From IMG/VR virus record IMGVR_UViG_3300047553_000365, positions 74,656 through 138,655 of that record: 64,000 nt of DNA; one strand, 5' to 3'. Made by a program: the position numbers and the translations under genes. Origin of the DNA: a virus. The notes under the pieces are model-generated. The model did not search any database and was not told the origin of the DNA. It saw only the letters and a program-made list of their open reading frames with translations. This document shows positions 24,409 through 64,000 of this stretch, piece after piece. Position 1 is the stretch's first letter, and each line of letters opens with the position of its first letter.

Positions 24409-24804
24409 TTAGTAATGTCTTCCACCGAATACGGTTGAGTTAGTAATATCCTCATAGATCAATGATCTTATGGGATCTAGAATGTATTTAAGTTGAACCC
24501 CACCCTCTACATAGAATGGTGCGCCTTCAAACTTATCCTTATTAAGTAAGTATAATATCCACCAACTTTTAATATCTCCGTAAATATTATAAGAAGCTAT
24601 TGTCATTGCCATTCGTTTGTTGGGAGTATAGAAACCAATGTATTGATCGTCAATCTCAGGAAAGTCAATCTTCTTTAAGATGTTATAGGTGTAGAAGTTC
24701 TTATCATCTTTCGATTGTTGAAAGACTTTAAAAATGCGTTCATATTCTCTGATGCTTAATGCTGAGAGTGATGGTATATCGTTTCTGTAAGTTCCTGTGT
24801 CCAT
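24409..24804 (-). CDS. baseplate wedge protein (gp53-like)
   Basis: IASYNIYGDIKSWWILYLLN. Confidence 0.65.
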   Translation of the reverse strand: MDTGTYRNDIPSLSALSIREYERIFKVFQQSKDDKNFYTYNILKKIDFPEIDDQYIGFYTPNKRMAMTIASYNIYGDIKSWWILYLLNKDKFEGAPFYVEGGVQLKYILDPIRSLIYEDITNSTVFGGRHY

Positions 24805-25673
24805 TATACGTGATCCATAAATCCTGCGTGTTCGATTGTGAGAGATTGGAATGTCATGGAAACAAGATATGCTTCCGGTTCAATAACACCATTTATCTCT
24901 CTTCTTGTTCCAATAAAGTCAACAGCAAAATCACTACAATAGGCCCATCTGATAAATCTATGACCGGGAATTCTAATCTTATAGATTCTTGGCGGTTCTA
25001 CTGTTAAGCTATTCTTTCTTAAAGGTCTATTTATTCTTGTTAGCTTATCGATCAGCTCTCTGTTTTTCTGTAAGCTATCAGCGTTGATAGTATTTGATAA
25101 TACAAATGTCACTTCAATGGGACCATCTGTTTTATCGTATTGGTAATACATTGGAGTTTCAATGTATGTACCGGGACTCATGTTGGTAGCAAATTGATTA
25201 TTAAAAAAGTCTTTAACCCCTGCCCATCCACCTATAGCACCCGCATTTTCAGCGTTTTTCTTGAAGGTATCCATTCCTTTATCTGCACCAGTTATATTCT
25301 TAAGTTCTCCCAACCCACCGAAAAGTTGTTTGACCATTTCATTTACTTCACTACCTATACCACCTGAAGATGCACTACTTGGTCCTGCAAACGAATCACC
25401 GAAAGCGTTTGAGAATCCCCTAATACGATCACTAAACATCGGAAAATTAAAATCATCTTCCTCAGTTACAGACTCCGAATACATCCTATCATAAAACTCA
25501 TCAGCACTCTTATCTTGAGTATCGTATATATTCATATAACCCCTAAATGCCAACATGATTTGATTGGCATTTATCTTATATGATTTCACTATAGCCTTTG
25601 GTGCAGAATTTCTCAAACCAGATCCTCTTGGGGAACTGGTCCAATCATAATCTCTGACTACATCGTATCTCAT
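24804..25673 (-). CDS. baseplate/tail-tube cap protein (gp48/gp54-like)
   Basis: PPRIYKI, CSDFAVDF, VSMTFQSL; synteny. Confidence 0.55.
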   Translation of the reverse strand: MRYDVVRDYDWTSSPRGSGLRNSAPKAIVKSYKINANQIMLAFRGYMNIYDTQDKSADEFYDRMYSESVTEEDDFNFPMFSDRIRGFSNAFGDSFAGPSSASSGGIGSEVNEMVKQLFGGLGELKNITGADKGMDTFKKNAENAGAIGGWAGVKDFFNNQFATNMSPGTYIETPMYYQYDKTDGPIEVTFVLSNTINADSLQKNRELIDKLTRINRPLRKNSLTVEPPRIYKIRIPGHRFIRWAYCSDFAVDFIGTRREINGVIEPEAYLVSMTFQSLTIEHAGFMDHV

Positions 25674-25680
25674 ATTTTAT

Positions 25681-25686
25681 TATTTA
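25681..25686 (-). promoter_or_regulatory. late promoter
   Basis: TAAATA-7 nt-ATG(25673). Confidence 0.55.
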
Positions 25687-61508: not shown

Positions 61509-62606
61509 ATGGAAATTCTACAAAATACAATTTTAAAACTAGTAGTTCGTCAAGGACCAGATTCGGACAGACAAGTTCTTGTTCTAGATTCTGGAGAATT
61601 GGGATATACAGTCGATCTTAAGAGACTATATGTTGGAGATGGTTTTTTAAGTGGTGGTAATGTTGTTGGAAATCTATTTGTTGGGGATGCACCAACTATA
61701 ACTGATCCCACATTGTATCCATCTGTAATCGGAGACTCTGCATTTGCAACTGATACCAACAAATTATATGTTCTTAAAACAGGAACAGGATCGAATGAAG
61801 CAGATTGGTTGCTGGTTGGGGGAGTTTACTCTTCTGGCACAAGTCAAATCACAATTTCTGCTGATAATGTCATGATGTTAAATCCATTATCGGCTGGTTA
61901 TATCTCATCTGATGCTGTGGAACAACCACTATACATTAATTCGGGTAGAATCGCATTGGCTGGTTTGTCTGCAAATGCATTTACTACTGACTCTCTTACC
62001 CCAAGCATTATATTGAGTGGTGGAAGATTAAGAGTGGCTCCTCTATCTGCTGGTTATTTCTCCACAGATGCATTATCCGCACCATTAGGACTAAATCAAG
62101 GTAAACTAACACTTAGACCACTATCCGCTGGAAACTTTTCTCATGATTCTGTCTCTGCTCCTCTAACTATCACTGATGGTAAAATTTCTCTATCATCGTT
62201 TATACCTGCCAATGTTCTTACAACAAAGACATTAAAAACAGGAAGTGGTTTGGATCTGTATTTTGATGGATATGATTATAGTCTATCCGCTATCAATCCC
62301 CTATCAGGAAACTTGGTGATTGAATCGAATCAAATGTATACCAGATTTGTTGGTGCAAGTGGTATTGAAGAAGCAAGTAAAGGATTTACTGGTGTTTATG
62401 CCCTATCAATCGGACATTACAGACTACCATTTGCAAAACCTCTACAGACTGACCAATATATTGTTATGGCACAAATTTATGGAACAGATAGTTTCGGTTA
62501 TGAACCAAGAGTGATCTATATGGGAACTGACCACTGTGACATTAAGATATTAAATTCTGGTGGAAACACTATGGATGCTAATATCATGGTTAAAATCGAC
62601 TACTAA
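61509..62606 (+). CDS. tail fibre protein with Mtd-N-like N-terminal domain and 26-aa shaft repeats
   Basis: VRQGP...DSGELGYTVDLKRLYVGDG; four PLSAG repeats. Confidence 0.75.
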   Translation: MEILQNTILKLVVRQGPDSDRQVLVLDSGELGYTVDLKRLYVGDGFLSGGNVVGNLFVGDAPTITDPTLYPSVIGDSAFATDTNKLYVLKTGTGSNEADWLLVGGVYSSGTSQITISADNVMMLNPLSAGYISSDAVEQPLYINSGRIALAGLSANAFTTDSLTPSIILSGGRLRVAPLSAGYFSTDALSAPLGLNQGKLTLRPLSAGNFSHDSVSAPLTITDGKISLSSFIPANVLTTKTLKTGSGLDLYFDGYDYSLSAINPLSGNLVIESNQMYTRFVGASGIEEASKGFTGVYALSIGHYRLPFAKPLQTDQYIVMAQIYGTDSFGYEPRVIYMGTDHCDIKILNSGGNTMDANIMVKIDY

Positions 62607-62611
62607 AACAA

Positions 62612-63367
62612 ATGGCATACCCAAATGATATCTTTTTACCTGCTAATTCCAAAGAGTTCGGTTTCGTAGATTCGAAATACGATTACAATGGGCATTGGGA
62701 TATTGTTTGGAGCTTTACATTTGCTTTAACAGGAACAGAACACGCATTTGCCACTTTCCTAACCACAAACCCAAATCTATCAACTGGAAATGCTGGTCAA
62801 TATTTAGGTTACTTCACAATCTCCCCCCCTATTCAAAATGGAAGACTTGTAATAGCATTTGATTCCACAGGATTATTTGCCTTACCAATAAGTGGTAATC
62901 CGGGTGTTGCGCTTTCAGCAGTAAAACATGATGCTCTAATTATTAGAGATGAGGATAATAATGTCATCTTTAATGAAGCCTTATCTAGTCTTTCAACCGA
63001 TTTCTTTTTAGCATCAGCAAATAAAAATTATCAAACGTTAAGATTCCGTTTTTCTAATGCTGGTAGAAAACTTTCCATTGATTATAAAAAGGAAAGAACT
63101 GAATATCAAACACTAACAAGTGTGACAATAAACTTTGATCTAAGTGCTTATCCTATTTTATATCCCGCATTAACATTCTGTTCTCCAATATCGAGTTTGA
63201 CTACACCATCAACGATGTATATTAAGAATTTTCACACTCAAGGTAGTGTAGAGTCTCCAACATATGAAAGTCTATCTTCTCTATCGTTGAGTGTATTTGT
63301 TCCAACAACATTTACAACGCTGAGTGCTATCTCAGCATTTAGAAACCCCTATCCTGTAATAGTGTAA
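62612..63367 (+). CDS. lectin/ConA-like structural protein
   Basis: IVWSFTF, LVIAFDSTG, LRFRFSNAG.KLSIDY beta-sandwich pattern. Confidence 0.5.
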   Translation: MAYPNDIFLPANSKEFGFVDSKYDYNGHWDIVWSFTFALTGTEHAFATFLTTNPNLSTGNAGQYLGYFTISPPIQNGRLVIAFDSTGLFALPISGNPGVALSAVKHDALIIRDEDNNVIFNEALSSLSTDFFLASANKNYQTLRFRFSNAGRKLSIDYKKERTEYQTLTSVTINFDLSAYPILYPALTFCSPISSLTTPSTMYIKNFHTQGSVESPTYESLSSLSLSVFVPTTFTTLSAISAFRNPYPVIV

Positions 63368-64000
63368 TGCCAGCTCCTACATGTAGTCCAGAAATTTACT
63401 GTCTTAGTGCTGTCATATCATATGATGTCACTGCTAATGGTGTTTATGCTGGTTATCCTGAAGAAACAATTGTGTTTTCTGGGTCACTAGAAAATGGGTA
63501 TTCTGGTACTGGTGCTGATGGAATATGGACATTGGTATGGGATGTGGGTAATATAGCATGGTTGATGAGTGATCCTATTGGGGGATATAGTTACGGTGCT
63601 ACTAATTCAAGATGTGATCCTTCTGATAGTGCGATGGCGGACTATTTAGAGGTTGCTAATAGTTATTGGTCCGTAGAGGGGCAGTATATAAGCCAATGTA
63701 ATTGTGAGTGTCCAGACGATTACACCTATCTATGTTGCAGTTACACAACAGATGGTGGGGTTAACGCTGGAAATGTGGAGTTAGTTGGTAGTATATGCGG
63801 TGGTGTCTTTGCAAGTGTGGGTTCTCCTAGTTTTACGGTATGGTGGGATGAGGTTGCAATAAAATGGCGTGCTAATTATGCTCCAATTGGAGATGATGAC
63901 TTGGGCGGATCATCAGATCCATGTGATATAAATGCTATTGGGTGGGTGGGAGCCGAATATACTCCCGATGAATGGACGTTAACTATTGATAGTGTAGGAT
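63367..64000 (+). CDS. Cys/Trp/Gly-rich structural protein, truncated by window edge (not in ORF track)
   Basis: TAATG coupling; frame open from ATG 63367 to the window end: MPAPTCSPEIYCLSAVISY... Confidence 0.7.
   Translation, partial: MPAPTCSPEIYCLSAVISYDVTANGVYAGYPEETIVFSGSLENGYSGTGADGIWTLVWDVGNIAWLMSDPIGGYSYGATNSRCDPSDSAMADYLEVANSYWSVEGQYISQCNCECPDDYTYLCCSYTTDGGVNAGNVELVGSICGGVFASVGSPSFTVWWDEVAIKWRANYAPIGDDDLGGSSDPCDINAIGWVGAEYTPDEWTLTIDSVG

Follow-up and report, generated by a model that had tools for sequence, protein, structure and literature searches.

Flagellin O-glycosylation and AIDA-I/TibA heptosylation rely on cytoplasmic transferases that modify exposed serine or threonine residues with loose local preferences, and we know of no strict ordered tripeptide in either system. 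In Bacteroidota, exported proteins are O-glycosylated in the periplasm at the motif D-(S/T)-(A/I/L/V/M/T), with aspartate at position -1. Mucin-type O-glycosylation is initiated by the polypeptide N-acetylgalactosaminyltransferases (GalNAc-Ts) of family GT27, and its sites are rich in threonine and proline, not of the leucine-serine-alanine type. Chloroviruses and giant viruses carry genes of their own for soluble transferases, for methyltransferases acting on sugars, and for an NRS/ER-type rhamnose pathway, and their capsid sequons are atypical. Mycobacteriophage virions are reported to be glycosylated by glycosyltransferases that the phages themselves encode (Freeman et al. 2023, Cell Host Microbe; via PMC12619734). 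Here we analyze the tripeptide leucine-serine-alanine (LSA) in the late proteins encoded by a 64,000-nucleotide (nt) stretch of the IMG/VR virus record IMGVR_UViG_3300047553_000365, hereafter the window, whose coordinates are used throughout. A sequence-only reading of the window had proposed that LSA marks virion proteins for a phage-encoded glycosylation or other modification system. We found that the motif is an order-specific, protein-level feature of unrelated outer-tail proteins, in this virus and across its clade.

The candidate system resembles each of the described ones in part. With the mycobacteriophage system, it has in common phage-encoded transferases in or next to the structural genes, with virion proteins as proposed acceptors of O-linked glycans. 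The mycobacteriophage glycans are reported at the C termini of capsid and tail-tube subunits, whereas the candidate sites here are internal tripeptides on sheath, neck, baseplate periphery, and fibres, the tube proteins are without LSA, and the phage is an aquatic T4-like myovirus. Acceptors of the mycobacteriophage type, that is, C-terminal Ser/Thr tracts on capsid and tube, were accordingly not matched by the LSA sites, with no copy in tube proteins or TerL. Virus-encoded soluble transferases, sugar methyltransferases, and an NRS/ER-type pathway are shared with the chlorovirus and giant-virus systems, but chlorovirus glycans are N-linked to the major capsid protein, while those proposed here would be O-linked and on tail proteins. 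Like the Bacteroidota motif, LSA has three residues, the middle one being a Ser/Thr and the next one small or aliphatic, and occurs in many unrelated proteins; unlike it, LSA has leucine at position -1 and belongs to virions that assemble in the cytoplasm. With the flagellin and AIDA-I/TibA systems, the candidate tag would share the modification, by cytoplasmic transferases, of many Ser/Thr residues on exposed faces of filament or beta-helix repeat proteins; no homologues of their enzymes (Maf, FlmG, TibC/AAH) were seen, although no search was aimed at them.

The window is the last 64 kb of a linear record of 138,655 bp with a CheckV completeness of 67%. Its source is a divergent, uncultured aquatic T4-like myovirus, with genes for a tail sheath, three tube-like paralogs, gp6, gp25, a gp14-like neck protein, four gp10_C paralogs, and a clamp loader; RmlA, RmlB, and an RmlD-like enzyme are also encoded on the contig. 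Open reading frame (ORF) calling on the whole contig gave 229 ORFs, and the 36 from position 24409 onward were taken as the late set. Most late genes (window 24804-60257) have a TAAATA box 5-6 nt ahead of the start codon, a spacing that implies leaderless late mRNAs, and the same box precedes the late genes of G001, the closest complete relative. The window ends inside an ORF about 0.6 kb past the last fibre gene, and no homologue of the portal and head-module genes of G001 was found on the contig.

To measure enrichment, the null was each protein's own residue composition, with a Poisson test and Bonferroni correction over 8000 tripeptides. The late set holds 31 LSA copies, spread over 11 of the 36 ORFs, against 4.34 expected (P = 1e-16; 8e-13 after correction), which makes LSA the strongest outlier among the 8000 tripeptides; the next one, EVP/VPE, stems from a single repeat protein (33977-36427). 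In the rest of the contig, 9 copies were found with 6.31 expected, so the contrast between late and other proteins that had been put forward as a check holds. In 2000 within-protein shuffles, the mean was 4.4 copies and the maximum 13, and a first-order Markov model, which is conservative since it already contains the signal, gave 8.9-12.1. Because five of the six copies in the fibre protein at 61509 and four of the seven in the PKD protein are repeated or clustered, copies within 30 residues of each other were merged; 21 clusters remained against 4.3 expected (P = 8e-9). The protein-by-protein counts of the sequence-only reading, about 31 in total, were all reproduced, as was its observation of one copy among the enzymes of the first 20 kb and several other proteins: positions 1-24408 contain a single LSA, in the ORF at 2966-3583. 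It had also listed virion proteins lacking the motif, and we indeed found none in gp6, gp25, the tube paralogs, TerL, or the 636-residue protein at 25684-27594, presumably its tape measure protein. The ISA, VSA, and MSA variants it mentioned are present but weakly raised (7 versus 4.1, 7 versus 3.3, and 1 versus 0.9).

The tripeptide was chosen after the proteins had been read, and internal repeats inflate the raw count, so a chance or compositional artefact had to be considered. The signal survives Bonferroni correction, the collapse of repeats, the Markov null, and shuffling, recurs in about 150 related loci, and is not seen in three control phages; since the corrections were survived and the clade replicates the result, this explanation is refuted for practical purposes, and we regard it as extremely improbable.

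The enrichment depends on the order of the residues. In the late set, the permutations LAS, SLA, SAL, and ASL occur 5-6 times each, ALS reaches 13 by way of ALSA overlaps, LTA is near expectation, and LSG, LSS, and LST are raised about 2-fold. All six leucine codons occur among the 31 copies, and seven of the serines are encoded by AGY; with every Leu codon and both families of Ser codons represented, it is the protein that is under selection. A DNA-level repeat or motif, which had been dismissed before on codon variety, is thus ruled out. Apart from the gp10_C paralogs and two Mtd_N N termini, the carriers have no detectable mutual homology, and a shared domain is ruled out at the BLAST level as well as by the sheath model described below, where the sites differ in their structural surroundings. 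Two known sequons were also rejected: DSA, of the Bacteroidota type, is not enriched (4 versus 3.6), and asparagine, as in N-x-S, precedes only 2 of the 31 copies.

To determine how far the motif extends, we turned to relatives in IMG/VR, where the sheath has at least 148; 80 of these, 56-81% identical, were kept. In 83 related loci, LSA occurs 398 times with 123 expected, the mean of four permutations being 142, and on the outer tail proteins of the clade LSA (or LSS) stands 3-7 times above chance. Over about 150 related IMG/VR loci, the enrichment in sheath, gp14-like neck protein, PKD protein, and fibres amounts to 3-6 times. The excess is restricted to certain families. Observed and expected counts are 194 and 33 for the sheath, 46 and 3.2 for the gp14-like protein, 27 and 2.7 for the PKD protein, 14 and 0.4 for the family of the 131-residue protein at 24409, and 97 and 31 for unassigned, mostly fibre-like ORFs. 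By comparison, TerL of the relatives has none with 10.9 expected, and the tube paralogs none with about 12. Individual sites are conserved to differing degrees: the column of the LSA in the 131-residue protein reads LSA in 12 of 20 relatives and LSS in 2, the site at residue 64 of the gp14-like protein is LSA in 18 of 34, and orthologues of the fibre protein at 61509 in complete relatives carry 1-4 copies each. No enrichment was detected in the 50-kb structural modules of T4 (7 versus 5.0), the Pelagibacter phage HTVC008M (6 versus 6.6), or the cyanophage S-SM2 (5 versus 5.5), which rules out a general trait of T4-like structural proteins. We found no report of such a motif in the literature searched and no evidence that the "moraphage" paper (PMC12619734) is an account of this clade.

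When pseudo-replication was removed by keeping only contexts with different flanks, LSA ranked first of all tripeptides (154 versus 50 expected) and LSS second (187 versus 79), followed by TLS, SLS, LSG, and PLS. The permutations LAS, SLA, and ASL reached 38-53, and ISA (50 versus 49), VSA (41 versus 37), and LTA (50 versus 39) were near expectation. Flanks tend to have P, G, S, or T at position -1, few charged residues nearby, and an abundance of Ser, Thr, and Asn, with no extended consensus in the 154 contexts. We read LSA as the most frequent version of a short linear motif peculiar to the clade, whose broader pattern is hydrophobic - Ser/Thr - small, in most cases L-S-[A/S].

The motif could be a docking or assembly site for a partner, such as a decoration protein, the mucin-like protein of the fibre operon, or a fibre chaperone. 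Its confinement to outer tail components, its periodic recurrence along a fibre shaft, and a conserved appendage-like Ser/Thr/Pro-rich protein in the same operon would suit such a role, but three residues are very few for protein-protein recognition, the 154 contexts share no extended flanking consensus, and the positions turn over faster than is usual for interfaces on a helical lattice. We therefore consider a docking site unlikely.

The turnover is evident in the alignments. Among 81 aligned sheaths, there are 30 columns with LSA and 31 with LSS, compared to 7-16 for LAS, SLA, and ASL; all LSA columns lie before residue 470, many of them in indel columns. Similarly, 14 PKD proteins display LSA in 22 different columns. 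Several of the well-populated columns of the sheath have no triplets outside L-[S/T]-[A/S], and at three of the five columns examined (window residues 164, 219, and 239) the center is Ser or Thr in nearly all listed sequences. LSA and LSS trade off among sublineages, A or S dominating while the sum stays high.

We then examined the setting of the sheath sites in an AlphaFold model built from the 81 sequences (predicted local distance difference test [pLDDT] score of 80), which resembles T4-type sheaths (KP1 sheath, Z score of 26.8; T4 gp18 [3J2M], Z score of 24.3). In this model, LSA 114-116 lies at a coil-to-strand start, LSA 164-166 in a coil preceding a helix, and LSA 365-367 in a short helical turn, so that the three predicted contexts differ from each other and are all at loops or edges. 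By analogy with the whole-chain match to gp18, residues from roughly 90 to 400 may correspond to the outer domains. The picture of an order-specific motif on unrelated outer-tail proteins is borne out, and the model places the sheath copies at loops or edges of the variable N-terminal region. The heterogeneous contexts, the indel columns, and the non-homologous carriers speak against a single fold element common to all sites.

A structural or evolutionary idiosyncrasy involving no modification nevertheless has to be weighed at this point. Leu-Ser-small triplets would be favored for strand starts, helix caps, and fibre repeats in Ser/Thr/Asn-rich domains, and would have been inherited and spread by duplication of short modules. 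The conserved columns are indeed hydrophobic - Ser/Thr - small, as in an in-out-in strand or a helix N-cap; most copies in the fibre protein at 61509 and several in the PKD protein fall within internal repeats; the flanks are rich in Ser, Thr, and Asn and poor in charge; and every co-occurrence with an enzyme lies inside one clade. Yet the order specificity is extreme, chemically similar triplets (ISA, VSA, and LTA) are not enriched, the three sheath sites differ in structural context, the carriers are unrelated in sequence, and homologous proteins of T4, cyanophage, and pelagiphage show nothing of the kind. We rate this explanation as possible but doubtful, and nearly as likely as the one we favor.

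That favored explanation, put forward tentatively and well short of probable, sees the motif as a serine tag that an enzyme of the clade itself, most plausibly a glycosyltransferase, would read. Situated in loops and variable insertions of the putative outer domains of the sheath, the gp14-like neck and PKD proteins, the baseplate periphery, and the fibres, the motif would act as a recognition tag whose serine hydroxyl would be modified late in infection. The modification would most plausibly be O-glycosylation by the clade's own soluble glycosyltransferases, and the tail and fibres would as a result be decorated with sugar. Modification of the serine, the enzyme responsible, and the sugar added are all our inference. 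A non-sugar modification of the serine, for example by a phosphate or an acyl group, or a protease site would also account for the central hydroxyl residue kept at several columns, and many late genes of the clade are without assigned function. Still, the tail module yielded no kinase, acyltransferase, or dedicated protease, the sole hint being a weak "peptidase" PHROG match of the protein at 25684-27594; a sheath cut at 2-5 sites would be destroyed, and among the modifying enzymes found, only glycosyltransferases are conserved together with the fibre operon. A non-sugar group on the serine, or a cleavage site, is hence rather improbable, slightly more so than a docking site.

We next considered the enzymes. 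Searches of the contig with PF00535, PF00534, and the GT2 profile found no transferase, in agreement with the earlier remark that none is visible in the window; none was seen because the contig is incomplete and ends shortly after the last fibre gene. We turned to five complete relatives of 197-207 kb, among which G001 (sheath 81% identical) was annotated in full. Each contains 3-8 GT2-family matches, and in all five a GT2 of about 276 residues is the last gene of the late tail-fibre operon. This GT2 is 63-75% identical among the relatives, compared to 27-54% for the neighboring fibres, and in G001 it comes after a small ORF with a late TAAATA box. In our virus, the orthologue is expected immediately past the point where the contig stops. 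Across 76 IMG/VR loci that carry this GT2, the 10 kb on its upstream side contain 297 LSA with 56 expected, and the 10 kb downstream contain 50 with 46 expected.

According to structure prediction (pLDDT of 94.5), the GT2 adopts a GT-A fold closest to that of the GalNAc-Ts (GT27), which make up all listed Foldseek matches, down to rank 49. A structural search across a representative set of structures gave GalNAc-T1 (8v9q; Z score of 23.3, root mean square deviation of 3.0, 258 of 276 residues) and Toxoplasma GalNAc-T3 (8uhv; Z score of 22.3), and the next GT-A protein scored 18.6. Residues D93 and H95 are invariant in 54 sequences, forming Asp-x-His with mostly Ser at position 94, which we take to be the equivalent of the metal-binding DxH motif of GalNAc-Ts. 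By sequence, it is a generic GT2: only PF00535 passes its cut-off, PF02709 matches 3 of 54 members at E = 0.05, and a profile search of the PDB sequences returned TarP and TarS but no GalNAc-T, so that membership in GT27 is not seen at the sequence level. No C-terminal ricin-type lectin domain was found either, the whole model of about 276 residues aligning to the catalytic domain alone. Hence, the clade GT2 is like the GT27 enzymes in its predicted catalytic-domain fold, its Asp-x-His, and a Thr/Pro-rich neighbor, and unlike them in having no lectin domain and no sequence-level match, in being presumably cytoplasmic, and, for our virus, in lying beyond the contig end.

Other putative sugar genes were noted in G001. 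Next to phoH (185.9-193.4 kb; L104:5919-13388), there are six or seven GT2-type genes, a GT11-like gene, and two FkbM methyltransferase genes, one of them fused to a GT2. No flippase or polymerase was found among the genes scanned in this cluster.

Several observations weigh against glycosylation of the LSA serine, beginning with the lack of a transferase on the contig, which is 67% complete. The ORF located 11-14 nt before the GT2 has a Ser/Thr/Pro tract in 44 of 60 distinct loci, compared to 18 of 979 other ORFs, and the pair of Ser/Thr/Pro protein and GT2 (loci L110-L185; G001 151552-152740) also occurs in the unrelated phages L182 and L185. The obvious candidate acceptor of the GT2 is therefore this upstream mucin-like protein and not LSA. 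Moreover, unrelated phages with GT2 homologues of 32-64% identity (L154, L159/160, L177, L181, L182, and L185) have no clear LSA enrichment, although their enzymes are divergent and the genes on either side may be other than tail genes. The loci examined included no clade member that lacks the GT2, so that the co-occurrence of motif and GT2 is phylogenetically one event. Families that do not carry the motif show no clear avoidance of it (10 non-redundant contexts versus 9-30 for permutations), and at columns 123 and 463 of the sheath, Lys, Gln-Leu-Ser, or triplets of no kinship to the motif occur as well. Finally, the head-region proteins and portal of G001 have 0-1 LSA each, which is no enrichment and is odd for a particle shield; with TerL and the tube proteins devoid of the motif clade-wide, the suggested shielding of the particle is a poor fit. 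As for the virion glycosylation system proposed from the window, the clade does encode GT2s, joined in G001 by FkbM proteins and a GT11-like protein, but the LSA serine could not be tied to a transferase. That L-S-[A/S] is a true sequon for a phage-encoded cytoplasmic O-glycosyltransferase, be it the GalNAc-T-like GT2 or another, which would recognize it in exposed loops of sheath, neck, and fibres, with a glycan built on it, is a more specific proposal that we consider conceivable but somewhat less likely than the tag as such.

The mucin-like neighbor also bears on the end of the contig. In other loci, the homologue of the last ORF of the window (63367-) enters a Thr/Pro-rich mucin-like tract (…PTTTPTPTTTPAPSTTPPPTTT…; L186:10756-11469 and L188:10089-10805). 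Every assembly examined that shares the fibre gene preceding it in identical form breaks off 634-717 nt into the ORF, inside or at the Thr/Pro repeat, which probably defeats assembly.

The sequence-only reading had also connected the motif to rhamnose. The RmlA and RmlD-like genes lie downstream of a 71-residue ORF with a late TAAATA box; the RmlB-like gene has its box 14 nt from the ATG, a distance unlike that typical of late genes, and all three enzymes score below the NCBIfam equivalog cut-offs. An NDP-L-rhamnose pathway is present, yet a dependence of the motif on it is not supported: in the complete relative G002, no RmlA or NRS/ER-like homologue was found, and it nonetheless has 15 LSA in its fibre module, together with the GT2. 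The proposed link with rhamnose therefore fails; for rhamnose, and only for rhamnose, this comes close to a result named beforehand as refuting, namely relatives that lack sugar genes but keep the motif.

If the serine is modified, virion glycosylation would extend from actinobacteriophages to a widespread clade of aquatic T4-like phages, and an abundant clade would have a sugar-coated contractile tail. The acceptor motif would be short and searchable, with sites predictable from sequence alone, and a true L-S-[A/S] sequon would give the glycosylation of phage virions its first defined acceptor motif. One could then test whether such tails mask receptors, stick to particles or mucus, or resist proteases or grazers. 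Even with no modification, an ordered tripeptide 3-7 times above chance in unrelated tail proteins, at shifting positions and clade-wide, needs explaining.

Table 1. LSA-carrying late proteins and rhamnose genes (positions in the window)
Feature	Coordinates	Strand	Details
131-aa late protein	24409..24804	-	LSA at aa 13; called gp53-like by the sequence-only reading only
Tail sheath	30379..32682	-	LSA at aa 114, 164, 365; Pfam sheath domains
gp14-like neck / head-closure protein	40816..41595	+	LSA at aa 64, 120, 123 (incl. LSALSA); PHROG 679 Hc2
PKD-domain protein	41592..43700	-	7 LSA (aa 120, 342, 349, 359, 376, 418, 617); Pfam PKD
889-aa late protein	49476..52145	+	3 LSA; no family match; late TAAATA box upstream
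Two gp10_C-type baseplate/fibre paralogs	57763-58575, 58588-59412	+	1 LSA each; Pfam Gp10_C
Fibre protein, Mtd_N N terminus	60264..61502	+	2 LSA
Fibre protein	61509..62606	+	6 LSA, five in a ~26-aa repeat G-x-L-x-L-x-P-LSA-G-x-F-S-x-D
251-aa distal fibre-module protein	62612..63367	+	3 LSA; identical protein on at least 5 other assemblies
Last ORF, cut by contig end	63367..63999	+	1 LSA
RmlA	47560-48294	-	PF00483, TIGR01207; locus 47560..49359
RmlD/NRS-ER-like reductase (SDR)	48291-49163	-	locus 47560..49359
dTDP-glucose 4,6-dehydratase (RmlB-like)	19677..20660	-	TIGR01181, 342 bits vs curated cut-off 365
aa, amino acids.

Many late proteins received no function from Pfam or PHROGs searches. 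This includes two proteins encoded between a tube paralog and TerL on the minus strand, at a place where G001 has no homologue of either, and for which no Pfam or PHROG family was matched: the 816-residue protein at 33977-36427, with 24 EVP/VPE tripeptides in an internal repeat, and its 453-residue neighbor at 36411-37772, which has short repeats in common with it. The three tail-tube-like paralogs (PHROG 45; 29081-29713, 29787-30353, and 32722-33303) flank the sheath gene, and no relative has LSA in any of them. The four gp10_C-type baseplate/fibre paralogs stand in tandem (56754-60257; 335, 270, 274, and 261 residues) and are 35-53% identical to one another over aligned blocks, with LSA in only two. 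Lastly, the fibre proteins at 60264-61502 and 61509-62606 share an initial Mtd_N (major tropism determinant N-terminal) domain, with 59% identity in the first ~46 residues.

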